Source of the DNA: a virus
Lineage: Duplodnaviria > Heunggongvirae > Uroviricota > Caudoviricetes
DNA length: 6,159 nucleotides
Virus record (IMG/VR): IMGVR_UViG_2529293142_000024
Strand: one strand, 5' to 3'
Shown in pieces: positions 1 to 6,159 of the stretch. The notes under the pieces are model-generated. The model saw only the letters and a program-made list of their open reading frames with translations. It did no database searches and was not told the DNA's origin. Position 1 is the first letter of the stretch, and each line of letters begins with the position of its first letter. The position numbers and the translations under genes are program-made.

Positions 1-84
1 ATGGCGGGTTATTTGTCCTGGTTATTCCCCCGTTGTAAAATCTCTCCTAAACTTAACGGTACGGCACCACACTTCGGGGATGAA

Positions 85-276
85 ATGTTCGCGCTGGTAC
101 TTTTTGTTTGCTACCTGGATGGCGGTTGTGAAGATATTGTTGTGGATGTCTACAACACGGAACAGCAGTGTCTTTATTCTATGAGCGATCAACGGATCCG
201 CCATGGCGGTTGTTTTCCGATTGAGGATTTTATAGATGGTTTCTGGCGACCAGCACAGGAGTATGGTGATTTTTAA
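85..276 (+). CDS. yebW: small uncharacterized protein, YebW-like (63 aa)
   Basis: Frame-1 ORF ends at TAA 274-276. Internal ATG at 85 is preceded by GGGGA (76-80) as a Shine-Dalgarno; product is MFALVLFVCYLDGGCEDIVV...GDF. The ATG at nt 1 coincides with the window edge and has no visible RBS. Size and position convergent to pphA match the E. coli yebV-yebW-pphA order as I recall it. Confidence 0.5.
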   Translation: MFALVLFVCYLDGGCEDIVVDVYNTEQQCLYSMSDQRIRHGGCFPIEDFIDGFWRPAQEYGDF

Positions 277-933
277 TTATTGCAATTGCACAAGAGTCAG
301 TTCGCCCCCAAAGACAGCACCGGTATCAATATAATGCAGGTTGCCAATATCCACGCGATGTCGCAACGGTGTATGACCAAACCAGAAATGATCAGCACCT
401 GTAATTCCCTGCCCTTTTTGGCGTTCACCTAATCGCGAGCGGCTCCACAAGACCTGATGCAAATCAACGTCCTTTTGCCATTCATAAACATCATCTGGAT
501 AATCGGCATGAGCAATAACATGTTTGCCGGTACGACTGTGTACTTCAAGAATAAAGGGCAAATGCTGACATTTTTCCAGCGCCGTTTTCGCTTGTTTCTG
601 TTGATTATCTGCCAGCGCAATAAACCAGTCGCCGCCATTCATCAACCACAAAGACATCTGCTGGGATGCCAGCGCATCCATCGCCATCTGTTCATGATTG
701 CCTCTTACCGCACGAACCCAATGTTGTTCCAGTAACTGCAGGCAACGTAAACTTTGCGGCCCACGATCGATAACGTCTCCCACTGAGATAAGTAAATCTC
801 GCCACGGATCAAAACCACAATGCCATAATTTGCGGCGCAACTGCTCAAGACAACCGTGTATATCGCCAGAAAGCCAGATATGTCGCCATTGATGACCCGC
901 AATTCTCTGATAAACGGGCGCAGGCTGTTTCAT
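277..933 (-). CDS. pphA: serine/threonine protein phosphatase 1 (PrpA), calcineurin-like metallophosphatase
   Basis: Minus-strand ORF 277-936 starts at TTG in the ORF track; the ATG at 933-931 with a GGGAGG Shine-Dalgarno (complement of 943-948) gives 218 aa. Metallophosphatase motifs are visible: GDIHG, GDVIDRG, GNHE. The sequence matches my memory of E. coli PrpA almost residue for residue. Stop abuts the yebW stop (TAATTA at 274-279). Confidence 0.85.
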   Translation of the reverse strand: MKQPAPVYQRIAGHQWRHIWLSGDIHGCLEQLRRKLWHCGFDPWRDLLISVGDVIDRGPQSLRCLQLLEQHWVRAVRGNHEQMAMDALASQQMSLWLMNGGDWFIALADNQQKQAKTALEKCQHLPFILEVHSRTGKHVIAHADYPDDVYEWQKDVDLHQVLWSRSRLGERQKGQGITGADHFWFGHTPLRHRVDIGNLHYIDTGAVFGGELTLVQLQ

Positions 934-1064
934 CAATATTTTCCTCCCGCGCTAAAGATCACATAATCTTAACAAGAATGTTAAAAAACGCTGGACTCAG
1001 ACAGTAGAGTGTGTGTTATGGTTGACTATAAAGTCAGCGAAGGAAATGCTTCTGGCTTTTAACA

Positions 1065-1100
1065 GATAAAAAGAGACCGAACACGATTCCTGTTTTCGTC
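1065..1100 (-). ncRNA. SdsR/RyeB-like sRNA 3' terminator fragment (hairpin plus U5); the 5' body of the sRNA is not present adjacent to it
   Basis: Minus-strand RNA reads GACGAAAACAGGAAUCGUGUUCGGUCUCUUUUUAUC. This is near-identical to the 3' end of enterobacterial SdsR as I remember it (...GACCGAAUACAGGAAUCGUAUUCGGUCUCUUUUU). The hairpin is imperfect here (one bulge, one mismatch). Location upstream of pphA matches the K-12 pphA-sdsR/ryeA-yebY arrangement. Sequence 5' of it on the same strand (1101-1260) is 25% GC and unlike SdsR. Confidence 0.35.
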
Positions 1101-1470
1101 AACAAACAACAAAATCTTTTAGAATTAATGTGTTAAATAAATTTATGCTCATCTTTTAATCTCTAACACGTACTATTACATATTAATACATTCAATTAGT
1201 TACCATTTTTTTCGAGTTTTTTAGAGAAATTTTCGGGAATATTTCAGGTCAATCCATGCATACACAAGCAATTCCTGTATTGAATAATTCCGTAGCAATT
1301 ATGTAAAATCATCTCCGGCTGATTTTCATTCAAACTCGCGCTATCGAATAGCACAAAGCCTTGCAATCCAGTGCAAAGCTTTGTGTGTATGAGTTTTTTC
1401 TCACATCACCAGGCAATCATCAAACTCCGTATTCCTGGCGTCATTAATTATGTAAGTGATCACCACGAAT

Positions 1471-1498
1471 ATAGCCAGTGCAGAATAGCCAGTGCAGA
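1471..1498. repeat. perfect tandem duplication of a 14-bp unit (ATAGCCAGTGCAGA x2)
   Basis: Read directly: atagccagtgcaga at 1471-1484 and again at 1485-1498. Function unknown. Confidence 0.9.
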
Positions 1499-1730
1499 AC
1501 TGTAACCATCATCATCTTCTGGCAGCGCTTCCCTTCTCCCGTTATCCAGATTAACCGGGTGGTGCTGAGGATGAGTCCGATATCGCTTGATCCTGAATTC
1601 CACATCTATAGCAAAGCGGAAGGATGTCTCAATGTCGTGGACACACAGTGTTACAGCCACAAATCTATAGCCTAAGAAAGGTTTATTTTGTAATTAAAGA
1701 AGATTTTAAAAACCAGATTACTCATTCATA

Positions 1731-1759
1731 TAGACACCAATCCCCTACAGTCATAAAAT
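1731..1759 (+). promoter_or_regulatory. candidate sigma70 promoter for the acyltransferase gene
   Basis: TAGACA (1731-1736), 17-bp spacer, TAAAAT (1754-1759), about 43 bp upstream of the ATG at 1802. Followed by AAGAGG Shine-Dalgarno (1790-1795). Sequence-only prediction in an AT-rich region, so false-positive risk is high. Confidence 0.3.
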
Positions 1760-1801
1760 GCCTCTTTTGAATTGCTTTATCTTCATAACAAGAGGTTATT
1801 G

Positions 1802-2945
1802 ATGCTTCGCCACTTAACAGGACTCAGATTTATAGCTGCATTAATGGTTTATTTATGCCATTTAAATACAGACTATTTTGGTGTTTTTGTAAAAGAAATG
1901 TTTTCTCAGGGATTTATTGGCGTTTCCTTTTTCTTTATTTTATCTGGCTTCATTCTTTCATATTCATATGAAGACAAGCTAAAAAATGAAGTAACAAGTA
2001 AAAGACAGTTTATTCTTTTAAGATTGGCAAGAATTGTTCCAATGCATCTATTATTAGCCATGCCATTTATTTTACTAACCATTCACTTAAAGAACTTTGA
2101 TTTTTCAAAAACCTTAACAAATATTTTATTAATGCAAAGTTGGATACCAAAGGAGGATTACTACTTCTCATTAAATGGTGTATCATGGTCTTTGTCTGAT
2201 GAGCTGTTTTTTTATTTAATGTTTATTCCGTTGATTTATACATCAATTACAAAGAAAGTAATCACTGCAATATCAATTATAACTCTACTATTAACTATAT
2301 ATTTTTTAAAAATATACAAACAGAAGAACTTAATCACTGGTTATATTATATATTCCCAGTAAGCCGCTTGGTAGAATTTATTTGCGGCATGATTATTTAC
2401 GCTTGCTGGAAAAACAGCCGACAGCCGACAGCCGACAGCCGACAGCCGACAGCCGACAGCCGACAGCCGACAGCCGACAGCCGACAGCCGACAGCCGACA
2501 GCCGACAGCCGACAGCCGACAGCCGACAGCCGACAGCCGACAGCCGACAGCCGACAGCCGACAGCCTTTTGTTTTTAATTTCACTATTACCTCTGCTAAT
2601 AGCTATATATTATAGCAACAACATAAATAATAGTCTACGTTATTCGTTATATTATTTACTCCCCATGGTAATATTCTTTACTTCATGCATCTATCTAAGA
2701 AATGGAGTCATTCATACTATCCTCAGTTCAAAAACCCTAGAGCTATTAGGGAAATCATCATTTATTTTTATTTAATTCATCAACCCATTATATTATTTTG
2801 CTTTAAAATCTTTGGACATAACCCCGGACCACTCTATTTAATAGCGCTCCTTGTTATAATAACCATAGTCTCAATCATACTTTATAAATTAGTTGAGGAG
2901 CCTTTAGAGCTGATGCTAAGAAAACGAATTTTAGCAGTAAAATAA
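1802..2945 (+). pseudogene. acyltransferase family 3 (O-antigen/LPS O-acetyltransferase-like) integral membrane protein gene; frame-disrupted as sequenced, carrying an in-frame (CAGCCGA)21 tract
   Basis: Three consecutive ORF fragments in frames 2, 1 and 0 (1772-2362, 2368-2775, 2685-2945) together read as one AT3 protein of about 380 aa. Family hallmarks: N-terminus MLRHLTGLRFIAALMVYLCHL, motif VSWSLSDELFFY, R-x-VEFICGMIIYA, C-terminal GKSSFIF/YLIHQPII and LVEEP. ATG at 1802 has a good Shine-Dalgarno; the ORF-track start at 1772 is TTG. Frame breaks map to the T6A5 run (2302-2312) and the T5 run (2764-2768); each is repaired by +1 nt. About 28% GC against about 45-50% in flanking genes. Confidence 0.7.
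2415..2566 (+). repeat. simple-sequence repeat: 21 perfect copies of heptanucleotide CAGCCGA plus a partial copy (CAGCC), inside the acyltransferase coding region
   Basis: Counted directly: units start at 2415 + 7k for k = 0..20, then cagcc at 2562-2566. In the gene frame the tract encodes (SRQPTAD)x7. The tract is 71% GC. Confidence 0.97.
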
Positions 2946-2947
2946 AT

Positions 2948-2971
2948 AAAACCGCGCTATTGCGCGGTTTT
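2948..2971. terminator. bidirectional intrinsic terminator between the acyltransferase (+) and the phage tail operon (-)
   Basis: AAAACCGCGC (2948-2957), loop TATT, GCGCGGTTTT (2962-2971): a 10-bp stem with 6 GC pairs, flanked by A/T runs so a U-tract follows on either strand. It lies 3 bp after the acyltransferase stop (2943-2945) and overlaps the last codons and stop (2959-2957) of the minus-strand small ORF. Confidence 0.55.
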
Positions 2972-3136
2972 ATCTTCAGGCTTGATGAATTTTTTACCGT
3001 CATATGACCAGCCAATACCAACATCTCCAACACATTTAACTATATCCGCTTTTTCTGTCTTAAACTCTGACTTACCATCCCATACAACAAGATTTGTAAC
3101 GACACCATTTTGTACGACTGCATAAATATCGCTCAT
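2957..3136 (-). CDS. small phage protein (59 aa), function unknown; possibly a short or truncated tail-fibre accessory/assembly-like protein
   Basis: ATG at 3136-3134 overlaps the tail-fibre stop (TAATG). GGGAG Shine-Dalgarno at 3149-3145 with an 8-nt spacer. Product MSDIYAVVQNGVVTNLVVWDGKSEF...KTAQ. The ORF track extends it to a GTG at 3151. No family recognised with confidence. Confidence 0.45.
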   Translation of the reverse strand: MSDIYAVVQNGVVTNLVVWDGKSEFKTEKADIVKCVGDVGIGWSYDGKKFIKPEDKTAQ

Positions 3137-3729
3137 TACTGATACTCCCACACAAGAATATATCCCTGATTTCCATTATTTCCTGTCGCTGGGCCTGATG
3201 ACGCCTTATTGTATTTACCTGTCCCGCCAATACCGTATGTCCCAAGCATAGTAGTGGTTATACTTTCAACGCCAATCGCCTGATCATCACCAAGTCCAAG
3301 TGCCCCACATAAATTTGATCGTGAAACTGAATGGAACAGAATCCCTTGCCCTGTAGGAATTGGTGCTTCTGTTGCACTTCCCCCTGAAAATGGAGGTACC
3401 TGCTGAACTTGAGTTGATCCCCTTCCTCCCGGGCATACAAGCAAATCACCAAAGCTTGTATTCCCGCCGTCACCTCCAGAGCCTCCTGGTCCTGTTCCTG
3501 CTACACCACCGCTTCCAATAGTTACTTGCACGGATTCAGGTATAGACTGATAAAAAAATGCTTTAGCATATGCCCCGTTGGAACCGGCAGCACTTACACC
3601 ACAGTTATTTGAGGCTGTTGCTGATAAATTGCCACTGGCACCACCACCGCCAACGGCTTCCACTATAATTTTCGTTACACCAGGTGATTTGTGATAAGTC
3701 CCAGATGATCCAAATACCTGAACCCCCAA
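3136..3729 (-). CDS. tail fibre protein, glycine-rich C-terminal segment (probably the distal part of one fibre gene interrupted at 3782-3788)
   Basis: ORF with a TTG start and no credible Shine-Dalgarno. Gly-rich stretches (VEAVGGGGASG, GSGGVAGTGPGGSGGDGGNT) typical of phage fibre distal domains. Its frame is open upstream to the TAA at 3789-3787, directly after the A7 run of the upstream ORF. Confidence 0.6.
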   Translation of the reverse strand: MGVQVFGSSGTYHKSPGVTKIIVEAVGGGGASGNLSATASNNCGVSAAGSNGAYAKAFFYQSIPESVQVTIGSGGVAGTGPGGSGGDGGNTSFGDLLVCPGGRGSTQVQQVPPFSGGSATEAPIPTGQGILFHSVSRSNLCGALGLGDDQAIGVESITTTMLGTYGIGGTGKYNKASSGPATGNNGNQGYILVWEYQ

Positions 3730-3755
3730 AAGCCTTCCTGTTCCATCACCAAGTG

Positions 3756-4283
3756 TTAAATATTGTAGAGTTTCCGATACGTTTTTTTACTTAAAATTTC
3801 CCTACCATTTTGAGTCAGCACTGTCATATCCATTGTTCCAGCACCTGTAAAAAATGCCAGCCCATCCGGTATTCCTGTTAAGCTCGACAATGATGTCAGA
3901 TTATCATTTTTATCCTGTTTATCATTCAGAATGTCTGTCATTCCCAGGTTTTCGAGAGCCGTTTGCACAGTGCCATCCGATTTGATATCGCCAAACGGAT
4001 TCTTGCGGCTCAGGTATTCAACAGCAAACCCCGATCCCAGCAATTCAACAAAACCGGGCAGATCACCATTATCAAGCACATCCCGTTGCGTTTTGTCACT
4101 TACAAACTGGGCCAGAGCTGCAGCAATAAAGCTGGCCTGCCGAATAACCTTATTGACTTGCGCACTGGATGCTTTCCCTGCTGTAAATCCGGATAAAAGC
4201 GCAGGCAACGCTTCCCATTCCTCCTGCGACATAACATTGGCATTCCGATCAGTTGCAAACGCTTTAAAGTCATTTTTCGCCAT
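3756..4283 (-). CDS. tail fibre protein, N-terminal (baseplate-proximal) segment
   Basis: Product [33 protein letters not shown]... resembles the conserved N-termini of P2/Mu-type side tail fibres. ATG at 4283-4281 overlaps the stop of the upstream gene (TGATG), with GGGAG at 4298-4294. The ORF track's alternative ATG at 4301 has no usable spacer. Ends at TAA 3758-3756, 10 codons after an A7 run. Confidence 0.65.
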
Positions 4284-4963
4284 CAGAGTAATACTCCCCA
4301 TGCCCCTACATCAAAACCACTGATGAATTCGTTATCCATATCAAAACCAAAAAATTTTGAACCTTCCGATGGAGTTTCCACCGAAGGTGTTTCAATGCCA
4401 CCCGCCCAAACCCCGGCGGCTTTTACTGTGAGATATCCCTGTTTAATTGCAGCAATTAACTCACGCGATACATCTGAAATATCAGTATCAGGAAAGAGCC
4501 AGACCGATATCGTCATGTCCTGGTTATCGACTATCTGCATTCGCAGTCCGGATCCTGCTGTCGCCGCGTCAAGAATTGCTGGAAGCGAATCATTCCGTCC
4601 GTCCCAGTTATTAATCGCAATCTTCGCTTTAAGGATGACACGATAAGTTTCATCGCTGAGGTACATGTATCCGGAATCAGGATCGTATGGCCCCTGCCAT
4701 ACACCCTGATCATATCCAAGCCCGTCGGTATCCCAGCTGAAATAGACACCTGAGATAGGCTGGCTGACAACACGGCTACGTCCGATCCACAATCCAAGAA
4801 TGTCAAGTTGCACACCAACCGCAGAGTCAATATCAAATGCAGTAATCAGCCCTCTGGTGGCAGCCGCAACATCAATAAGCGGCCGGGTCATCAGATCAAC
4901 ATGTGCAAGAAATTTAGGTTTGGTGGCGTGGTAGTTCGTGATCAGTTCGGTGTATTTGCTCAT
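4283..4963 (-). CDS. phage baseplate/tail protein, P2 gpI / Mu gp48-like by position (226 aa)
   Basis: ATG at 4963-4961 overlaps the stop of the J-like gene (ATGA). Sits between the baseplate J-like gene and the tail fibre, as gpI does in P2-type, Mu-type and R-pyocin-type tail modules. Assignment is mainly positional; no motif recognised with certainty. Confidence 0.5.
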
Positions 4964-6159
4964 GACTCCACCGTTATAACGATATTTTCCGGTGTACAGG
5001 ACGCAGATTCGTTGTATCTGATATCAATGTTTGATGACGACAAAGCCCCCGGGGATTTCCCAATCGTCAGTTCCTGAATATCGTAATAGCGTGCATTCCC
5101 GCCACTCACCACGCCAAGATTCGCCGGTGAGTAAATGCGACTTAAAAGGACCGAATCACCAATCATCAGACTATTGATATAGTCGGAAATAGCCTGCTGG
5201 ATCTGCTGCCCTATCTGTGAGGTATAACCCGTAAAAACTTTTAATTTAATCCGGGCATAAACAGGTACATCACTGGAACGCGAGAATTTGATTACATGGG
5301 GATTGCCGTATTTATCCGGAACCGTAACGGATGTTGTACCGTGAGTGGCTGTCCCCTGGCCTTTATTCCCTCTGATAGCCTGAGCAATATCCGTCACATC
5401 ACCGCCATCCACAATTACAGCAACAGAGTGTGGCGGTAACCCGTTACCGTCCTCCGAACCAGTATCGTTTTCATAGAGTTTGTGGCGGGTTACACCGGTA
5501 ACATTAGAAACAGCACCATCCAGTGCTTCAAATGGGGTTATTGATGGCAACGCAACACTTTGCGACTGGCGGATACGTAACTCAGCATCAGTTTCTGCCG
5601 GAGAGCCAACAGTAGCCGCAGCAGGATTAGTTACCGAAACCCAGCCACGGGTTGGCGTATTAATTTCAGTGATAGTTCCAGCCAGCGCCGCCACTGCACC
5701 ACTGACGGAACATGTTGCGGTCGCCATCACTGTACCATCCACGCCGACCACCACTGAAGCAGGCAAACGCCATATCACATTATTACTGTCTTTCACGCTG
5801 CCATTAATGATGGTTGTTCCGGCAGTTCCTGTAAGAAGCAAATCAACCGTAGAGTTCGTCGCGCCTTTACGTGAAATACCATTTATTTTCACGTTACTGG
5901 TCAGTGCAGCCCCATAGCCGGTTGCCGGTGAAAAACAGTTGTAGACAGTTATCGCCATATTATTAGCATCATGAATCGCCAGCGCCATCAGAGCCACCAT
6001 CTGGCCGTCTTTGCTGTCCGGTTCGAGGTAGGCATCACTGCCATAAATCTGCTGAAAATAGCTAATCAGGGTGCTGAGTATCGTCTGATAATCAGGCGCA
6101 CTGATCCCCTCCGCGGTTACCTTTGCAGATAAACCGAGAGAATCAAGGTTCAGAGCCAT
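4960..6159 (-). CDS. phage baseplate J-like protein (baseplate wedge); start codon lies at the window edge, so the gene may extend beyond it
   Basis: 399-codon ORF. Contains the AETDAELRIRQ motif and overall resemblance to Baseplate_J-family proteins of contractile-tail phages. Gene order J, I-like, fibre. Confidence 0.6.
   Translation of the reverse strand: MALNLDSLGLSAKVTAEGISAPDYQTILSTLISYFQQIYGSDAYLEPDSKDGQMVALMALAIHDANNMAITVYNCFSPATGYGAALTSNVKINGISRKGATNSTVDLLLTGTAGTTIINGSVKDSNNVIWRLPASVVVGVDGTVMATATCSVSGAVAALAGTITEINTPTRGWVSVTNPAAATVGSPAETDAELRIRQSQSVALPSITPFEALDGAVSNVTGVTRHKLYENDTGSEDGNGLPPHSVAVIVDGGDVTDIAQAIRGNKGQGTATHGTTSVTVPDKYGNPHVIKFSRSSDVPVYARIKLKVFTGYTSQIGQQIQQAISDYINSLMIGDSVLLSRIYSPANLGVVSGGNARYYDIQELTIGKSPGALSSSNIDIRYNESASCTPENIVITVES

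Follow-up and report, generated by a model that had tools for sequence, protein, structure and literature searches.

The window analysed here is a 6,159-nucleotide stretch of a tailed-phage record (IMG/VR record IMGVR_UViG_2529293142_000024) that holds the tail-fibre end of an Escherichia coli prophage and the adjoining host DNA. Between the host gene pphA and a row of tail and baseplate genes lies a gene for an acyltransferase of the AT3 family, and inside that gene lies an uninterrupted run of the heptanucleotide ACAGCCG. A preliminary description of this DNA had presented the gene as a cargo acyltransferase with a surface-modifying role, a combined reading that our analysis partly supports; it had overlooked both the interruption of the open reading frame (ORF) and the intragenic heptanucleotide tract. 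We consider it probable that the gene is prophage cargo encoding an AT3 O-acyltransferase, that it forms a cassette with part of the receptor-binding fibre, and that its full-length product is set by slippage in the (ACAGCCG)n tract.

The acyltransferase and its reading frame

What kind of enzyme does the gene encode? The intact allele matches PF01757 at 1.4e-30 (106.9 bits, with a cut-off of 31) over profile positions 4-325 of 326, and the fragments present in the window score 54.9 and 26 bits against the same profile. The PHROG matches are 'O-acetyltransferase' (6e-51) and 'O-antigen acetylase' (6e-26), and the intact product is 381 residues long; the preliminary description had called for a search of a reconstructed sequence of roughly 380 residues against such families, and the search bears it out. 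The R/K-X10-H motif in helix 1 and the RXXR motifs have been described as essential in AT3 enzymes (PMC9558356). In an alignment of 79 homologues, Arg9 and His20 (R9-X10-H20) and Arg74 are invariant and Arg77 is found in at least 90%; the corresponding codons lie at 1826-1861 (R9-X10-H20) and 2021-2032 (R74-X-X-R77) of the window. The AlphaFold2 model (predicted local distance difference test score, pLDDT, 94.6; predicted template modelling score, pTM, 0.92) has ten long helices and a long loop between helices 3 and 4, in agreement with the AT3 topology of an inside N-terminus, ten helices, and a long periplasmic 3-4 loop (PMC9833829). No solved AT3 structure was found by sequence search or by a Foldseek search of the PDB, and a search of BFVD gave a single AT3-like match that carries no name. 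The protein has no SGNH domain and is thus an AT3-only enzyme. Its ratio of nonsynonymous to synonymous substitution rates (dN/dS) relative to the Citrobacter orthologue is 0.14-0.19, and the protein is therefore under purifying selection.

In the window as literally given, the gene is spread over three frames (1802-2362, 2368-2775, and 2685-2945), and no full-length protein could be made from it. Relative to the intact 339-residue E. coli allele (WP_000943925), the window has T for TT at 2313, T5 for T6 at 2765-2769, and 126 extra bases of heptamer repeat. Exact-protein look-ups of the three broken ORF products found no match; the same look-up with the adjacent 59-residue ORF retrieved contig AFDY02000034.1 of assembly GCA_000225185.3 (L015), which matches all 6159 bases of the window with no substitutions and with two single-T gaps only. 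Restoring these two T residues yields exactly the L015 gene, an intact ORF whose 381-residue product is, outside the repeat, 100% identical to the common 339-residue allele. Accession AFDY belongs to an E. coli strain producing Shiga toxin (STEC) that is negative for the enterocyte effacement locus (LEE) and was sequenced by 454 Titanium; the source lists the isolate as 031, O174:H21, in its Table 1 and gives H.I.8 for the same accession in its appendix (PMC3491183). A third T-run difference, T7 versus T8 at 3782-3788, splits the tail-fibre gene into ORFs of 175/181 and 197 residues; all related loci except L015 have T8 and, where genes were called, a single fibre ORF of 382 residues. Sequencing by 454 is prone to errors in homopolymer length. 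We judge the acyltransferase frameshifts to be probably artefacts of this kind rather than real, because the revised assembly, from the same strain sequenced by 454, differs in nothing else and holds the gene intact. As for the T7 run in the fibre gene, either a 454 miscount of the homopolymer was carried over into the revised assembly, or the A8 tract of this receptor-binding gene underwent a real slip.

An alternative is that the gene in this strain is a dead remnant, a pseudogenized cargo gene whose repeat drifted to 22 copies without consequence. Such decay would account for the two single-base deletions and three frames, for the split of the neighbouring fibre gene at its T7 run, for the loss of 1.28 kb from this prophage end relative to related loci, and for the recurrence of T5, at the site equivalent to 2765-2769, in two other assemblies (L011 and L018), where it could be a real recurrent slip or mutation. 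The recurrent T5 and the untranslatable state of the literal copy are the points here that speak against a functional gene in this strain. However, apart from two T residues the sequence is identical to L015 with its intact 381-residue protein, the non-tract protein is unchanged from the 339-residue allele, and decay shows in no other way. The 6 kb holds three frameshifts, each an undercall in a T run of a 454 assembly, and the later assembly version restores two of the three. We regard a dead remnant as unlikely. The L011 and L018 assemblies also have a decayed tract (ACAGCCG ACAGCAG AAAGTCG GCAGCC) and a truncated product of 282 residues, and the T run at 2765-2769 may be a second site of recurrent slippage or may reflect an artefact of sequencing common to them.

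The heptanucleotide tract and its alleles

How do the reading frame and the protein depend on the tract? In the window the tract comprises 21.9 copies of the 7-bp unit ACAGCCG with 100% matches, and the unit length is not divisible by three. The common allele has in its place an interrupted proto-repeat, ACAGCCG ACAGCAG ACAGTCG ACAGCC, and the Citrobacter orthologue has no repeat at this position. At the DNA level we found alleles of 2.9, 3.9, 11.9 (an expansion of ACAGTCG), 15.9, and 21.9 units, and protein records from E. coli and E. albertii, converted to unit counts, correspond to 3-13, 18, 19, and 24 units; combined, there are 16 values (3-13, 16, 18, 19, 22, and 24). Only 4, 7, 10, 13, 16, 19, and 22 units leave the frame open, and the window is in the ON register. 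Open-frame products of 339, 346, 353, 360, 374, and 381 residues are recorded, and the 16-unit allele (L010) is open at the DNA level. The remaining unit counts end early in two shifted frames, with the stop codon following ...PFVFNFTITSANSYIL or ...TAFCF. Three unit variants have each expanded independently, and the flanks of L010 and L001 differ by 2 mismatches in 2257 bp despite their differing tracts. This allele series is the pattern expected from single-unit slipped-strand mispairing and bears the signature of ON/OFF switching.

In-frame copies of the unit add heptads of the SRQPTAD type, and in the AlphaFold2 model the tract residues form a short loop (206-212) between helices 186-205 and 213-228. 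Because the published topology places the N-terminus inside, and because of the Lys and Arg content of the loop, we infer that the loop is cytoplasmic and joins helices 6 and 7. It is plausible that the 6-7 loop tolerates approximately 50 extra hydrophilic, proline-containing residues.

Several observations weigh against a switch. All of the tract variation seen is between isolates and not within a clone. Furthermore, the commonest allele is the imperfect 3.9-unit tract, whose 339-residue product (P0001) is found on 499 contigs; this majority tract is probably stable, and switching would therefore apply only to minority lineages with expanded tracts. Copy numbers themselves may be inexact, in that long perfect tracts may be mis-sized in short-read assemblies, and one Logan contig (L016) ends inside the tract at the equivalent of window position 2547. 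Since long alleles break assemblies, the public copy-number data are biased to short tracts.

A second alternative is that the tract is a mutational hot spot, a neutral or mildly deleterious variable number of tandem repeats (VNTR) in a tolerant loop, and that the OFF alleles are loss-of-function accidents. The interrupted majority allele and the restriction of known variation to differences between strains speak for this account, and the Citrobacter orthologue functions without the repeat. On the other hand, the independent expansion of three unit types, the occurrence of every count from 3 to 13, and the persistence of open frames up to 22 units in otherwise intact genes all speak for more than accident, and the series mirrors that of neuO, where the same pattern is a demonstrated switch. 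Moreover, each single-unit change still switches the frame, whether or not the change is adaptive. We find the hot-spot account rather improbable, and we continue to favor slippage as the determinant of the full-length product.

A literature search of open-access papers and bioRxiv for the repeat DNA and the heptad peptides found no paper describing this locus; the sole string match was a recombineering-host study containing the reverse-complement string only. We also considered whether the window is Shigella DNA and the tract a known typing locus for multiple-locus VNTR analysis (MLVA), and dropped this candidate; the literature search gave nothing relevant, and the window proved to be from the E. 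coli STEC of accession AFDY.

A cassette with the fibre tip at the prophage end

Is the gene phage cargo? A shared cassette of about 1297-4010, whose homology begins at about window 1297-1341, comprises an S24 peptidase gene fragment, the AT3 gene, a hairpin, the 59-residue ORF, a Gly-rich fibre tip, and the C-terminal fibre shaft. It occurs by pao genes, by pphA, by dacD/sbmC, and in another integrase-bearing element, and 11 IMG/VR viral contigs hold the gene. Among 5426 complete E. coli genomes it is found in only 7, versus 592 with the same baseplate-J/DUF2612 backbone, and the usual occupant of the prophage end next to pphA is an invertible fibre/tfa/pinE module (e.g., L024). Citrobacter portucalensis has an 83%-identical orthologue in the same arrangement, accompanied by a 61-residue ORF, a Gly-rich fibre, and a wedge protein, and its GC content is 30% versus 46% for its neighbours. 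Every context found is phage-linked, always with the same tail-fibre tip. No relative was found in the species-representative genomes scanned with the protein, and no match in a phage DNA collection searched with the gene. In silico, then, the gene looks like a lysogenic-conversion moron by its presence and absence among prophages, its own promoter-like site and hairpin, and its deviant GC content. The preliminary description had proposed a moron at the tail-fibre end of a prophage, had looked to strains with the same prophage and no cargo gene, and had named a core-genome context as the finding that would speak against it; the backbone is indeed found without the gene in hundreds of genomes, with the invertible module in its place, and no core-genome copy was seen, the Citrobacter orthologue being phage-linked as well.

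The position of the gene between host pphA and the tail genes could also suggest a host gene that merely lies beside a prophage. Yet it is absent from 5419 of the 5426 complete E. coli genomes and from every species-representative genome, it occupies a number of chromosomal sites unrelated to one another, in each case together with the same phage genes, and it is carried on the viral contigs mentioned above. We consider this explanation effectively refuted, with next to no probability left to it.

The composition and layout of the gene agree with its status as cargo, and here the claims of the preliminary description (a GC content of about 28% against about 45-50% for the neighbours, an orientation opposite to the tail operon, a candidate sigma70 promoter with a Shine-Dalgarno sequence, and a shared bidirectional terminator) have all stood, the promoter and the terminator each with a reservation. 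The gene, from its ATG at 1802 to its TAA at 2943-2945, has a GC content of 34.5%, or 28.9% without the 153-bp, 71%-GC heptamer tract, versus 47.7% for pphA and 44-49% for the tail genes. In both genera, Escherichia and Citrobacter, the contrast is one of 29% to 46-47% for the neighbouring genes. It lies on the + strand and converges on five tail and baseplate ORFs (2957-6159) on the - strand. The candidate promoter and Shine-Dalgarno sequence are present and invariant in Citrobacter; promoter-like matches in this AT-rich stretch are overall not above chance (6 found versus 9.2 expected). Approximately 160 bp upstream of the gene (1640-1801), including both hexamers and the Shine-Dalgarno sequence, are about 96% identical in Citrobacter (L019, L020, and L022 compared), versus only 83% for the coding region. 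This difference argues for a conserved control region and hints that it may have regulatory content beyond a simple promoter. Epigenetic control of the Dam/OxyR type, as in gtr and oafB, was considered and dropped, as the conserved upstream region has no GATC. The hairpin bridges the 11 nucleotides that separate the convergent stop codons, is flanked by A/T runs on either side, and is kept in Citrobacter. Its folding energy is -19.8 kcal/mol for the + strand (z = -4.9) and -21.4 kcal/mol for the - strand (z = -5.3), none of 200 shuffles being as good, and a terminator scan scored it on the - strand only.

What is the acceptor? Citing the precedents of Sf6 Oac and the PhiV10 acetylase, we infer by analogy that it may be the O-antigen and that its modification may serve superinfection exclusion or serotype conversion, the target and the effects that the preliminary description had named. 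Two results count against so specific an assignment. No NCBIfam equivalog matched, and identity to characterized enzymes is low (35% to the O-acetyltransferase of phage TL-2011b and 22-28% to Sf6 Oac). Another possibility is that the enzyme is functional and phase-variable and acts on another acceptor, such as enterobacterial common antigen (ECA), capsule, colanic acid, osmoregulated glucans, or peptidoglycan, and that the linkage to the fibre tip is a recombination accident. AT3-only proteins act on many acceptors (PMC9558356), no specific family model was matched, and the closest relatives outside Escherichia and Citrobacter are 35-45% identical, come from unrelated bacteria, and bear only generic names. 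However, the same linkage to the fibre tip is maintained across 17% protein divergence and across genera, and among phage families the best matches bear the annotation of O-antigen or O-acetyl transferases. Likewise, Sf6 oac is convergent next to the gene of a receptor-binding protein, and the TL-2011b O-acetyltransferase gene directly follows a large unannotated ORF that may encode its tailspike. A different acceptor is possible, though we think it the less likely case, and we retain the O-antigen or lipopolysaccharide structure bound by the linked fibre as the probable acceptor.

We propose the following mechanism. In the lysogen the gene would be transcribed from its own sigma70-type promoter toward the tail operon, and transcription would stop at the hairpin shared with that operon. 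The product would most likely be a ten-helix inner-membrane enzyme that moves acetyl groups from cytoplasmic acetyl-CoA to a surface glycan, the probable acceptor being the O-antigen or another lipopolysaccharide (LPS) structure bound by the linked fibre, and acetylation would change both surface antigenicity and phage adsorption. The frame dependence given above allows full-length enzyme only when n = 4, 7, 10 ... 22. Slipped-strand gain or loss of single units would move the frame and leave lysogen populations as mixtures of ON and OFF cells, and the heptads added by in-frame copies would lie in the cytoplasmic loop between helices 6 and 7.

The remaining features of the window are collected in the table below. 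The ryeA/sdsR remnant rests on an RF00101 match of 25.4 bits (E = 0.019), below the gathering threshold, and no Rfam family matched anywhere in the window at gathering thresholds. Because phage integration at ryeA/ryeB has been documented (PMC7380047), the tail-fibre end of the prophage is taken to abut host DNA here, and a small-RNA remnant right after pphA is consistent with a prophage inserted in this hot spot and truncating the small-RNA locus. The S24 fragment, which E. coli genome annotations give as a partial gene of the S24 peptidase/LexA family, contains an exact 14-bp tandem duplication (ATAGCCAGTGCAGA x 2.1) at 1471-1499. At window 1341-1348, 1.28 kb is missing relative to related loci (L002 4401-5679, L005, and L012), where the extra DNA consists of the invertase gene pinE, a piece of a gp53-like fibre, and fragments of tfa and an integrase; the 8-bp overlap of the flanks suggests a microhomology deletion between two stacked prophage ends. 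The 59-residue ORF (phrog_14370) is always found between the fibre tip and the acyltransferase gene, with its last codons inside the shared hairpin, and may encode a small fibre-assembly factor. Finally, we note that complete RefSeq genomes (L001 7337-8141, L027 8716-9520) carry no coding-sequence annotation for the Gly-rich fibre-tip region beside the acyltransferase and mark the part of the fibre upstream of it as partial; the cassette's fibre tip is thus under-annotated.

Features of the 6,159-nucleotide window, in order of position
Feature	Position	Strand	Basis
yebW	1-276		
pphA, host serine/threonine phosphatase, chromosomal flank of the prophage	277-936	-	ORF, with this annotation in the E. 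coli genomes that match
Remnant of the ryeA/sdsR (SraC/RyeB) small-RNA locus, likely attachment-site junction	1064-1184	+	sub-threshold Rfam RF00101 and RF00111
S24/UmuD/LexA-like peptidase gene fragment without N-terminus, left part of the conserved cassette	1460-1660	-	phrog_10470 at 2e-11
Promoter-like site TAGACA-17-TAAAAT	1731-1759	+	hexamers invariant between E. coli and Citrobacter
Shine-Dalgarno AAGAGG, 6 nucleotides before ATG 1802	1790-1795	+	invariant in the Citrobacter comparison
AT3-only acyltransferase gene, three frames in the window; 381 residues with two T restored	1802-2945	+	PF01757 on fragments and intact allele
Frameshift 1, single T where all other loci have TT	2313	+	
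Perfect (ACAGCCG) x 21.9 tract, ON register, about 7 SRQPTAD heptads encoded	2414-2566	+	Tandem Repeats Finder (TRF) score 306
Frameshift 2, T5 run where the intact allele has T6	2765-2769	+	
GC-cored hairpin between A/T runs, common to the convergent genes, bidirectional terminator-like	2944-2975	both	fold and Citrobacter conservation
59-residue ORF always accompanying the fibre tip, possible fibre assembly factor	2957-3136	-	phrog_14370 at 5e-27; Citrobacter synteny
Tail-fibre gene, split at the T7 run 3782-3788; 382 residues if T8; C-terminal Gly_rich_2 tip	3136-4283	-	
Baseplate wedge protein (DUF2612/Phage_Wedge1)	4283-4963	-	
Baseplate J-like protein	4960-6159	-	

Comparison with known acetylases and repeat switches

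Without the tract, the gene would be a phage acetylase moron of the ordinary kind. ON/OFF switching driven by repeats is a common feature of Neisseria, Haemophilus, and Campylobacter, and no well-studied switch of the repeat-slippage type other than NeuO is known to us in E. coli. A second case, if true, would mean that prophages of Enterobacteriaceae have repeatedly evolved stochastic control of surface acetylation, here with another enzyme family, in other prophages, and genetically tied to the tail-fibre tip. It would also provide a tractable system for studying how an AT3 membrane enzyme copes with, or makes use of, an insertion of variable length in one of its loops. In practical terms, the tract is a ready-made hypervariable marker, and it gives rise to apparent 'pseudogene' calls and to breaks in the assembly of E. 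coli and E. albertii genomes; should the acceptor be the O-antigen, switching could cause unexplained heterogeneity in serological and phage typing.

Among phage-borne acetylases, one functional precedent is Oac of the Shigella phage Sf6, likewise AT3-only and similar in length (333 versus 339 residues). The layout is the same, with a tailspike gene, a terminator, and a convergent oac that has its own promoter, and Sf6 Oac brings about serotype conversion and immunity to reinfection (PMC9558356). The two proteins are distant (28% identity over 155 residues at E = 1e-4; by hhalign, E = 1.7e-4, 22% identity, and a probability of 50%), and they belong to one superfamily and to different subfamilies. 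Furthermore, Sf6 is a P22-like podovirus with a tailspike, whereas the prophage here has baseplate J, wedge, and tail-fibre genes, and oac has no repeat tract. The best phage match, at 35% identity across 87% of the protein, is the O-acetyltransferase of Escherichia phage TL-2011b, whose gene comes directly after an unannotated ORF of 697 residues, a possible receptor-binding protein. That enzyme is of a different subfamily and phage type, its gene is co-oriented with its upstream neighbour, and no heptamer tract was seen in it. The PhiV10 enzyme acetylates the O157 antigen and blocks reinfection (PMC11854483).

Phase-variable relatives are also known. OafA of Haemophilus influenzae and OafB/family-II GtrC of Salmonella are AT3 enzymes that modify lipooligosaccharide (LOS) or O-antigen and are expressed ON/OFF; the switching of Salmonella OafB is epigenetic (PMC9558356). 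OafB has a fused SGNH domain, unlike the AT3-only enzyme here. Neither OafA nor OafB is tail-fibre-linked cargo of an Escherichia prophage. In H. influenzae, OafA switches by means of a 5' tetranucleotide tract.

The closest likeness in mechanism is to NeuO, the K1 polysialic-acid O-acetyltransferase of prophage CUS-3 in E. coli K1. In NeuO, the number of heptanucleotide copies decides whether translation proceeds, and copies in frame lengthen the protein by heptads (PMC3046976). Both genes are E. coli prophage-borne O-acetyltransferase genes with an intragenic heptanucleotide VNTR that yields full-length product only in register, both have wide natural ranges of copy number, and both add a hydrophilic seven-residue unit, RLKTQDS in NeuO and SRQPTAD here. 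However, NeuO is a soluble left-handed beta-helix of the hexapeptide type, whereas the AT3 protein is an all-helical membrane model whose only Pfam match is PF01757. The NeuO tract lies 2 nucleotides after the start codon, whereas here the tract occupies an inter-helix loop two-thirds into the gene. The repeat unit, the phage type, and the acceptor also differ; the AT3 protein is not of the NeuO family, and the likeness is one of mechanism only.

Should the parallel extend further, the tract could be both a switch and a dial: a second, independently evolved heptanucleotide switch in which the number of SRQPTAD heptads tunes activity, as in NeuO, and which acts within a pair of genes that bind and mask the same receptor, with stochastic expression hedging lysogens between phage resistance and immune or fitness costs. 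We offer this extended version as speculation and rate its chances as low. A phage AT3 acetylase moron beside a receptor-binding protein, phase-variable AT3 enzymes, and the heptanucleotide-switched NeuO are already known. What is new, as far as the searchable literature shows, is the combination of a heptanucleotide tract in an AT3 membrane enzyme, its position in an internal loop, and its residence in a fibre-tip cassette of Escherichia prophages.

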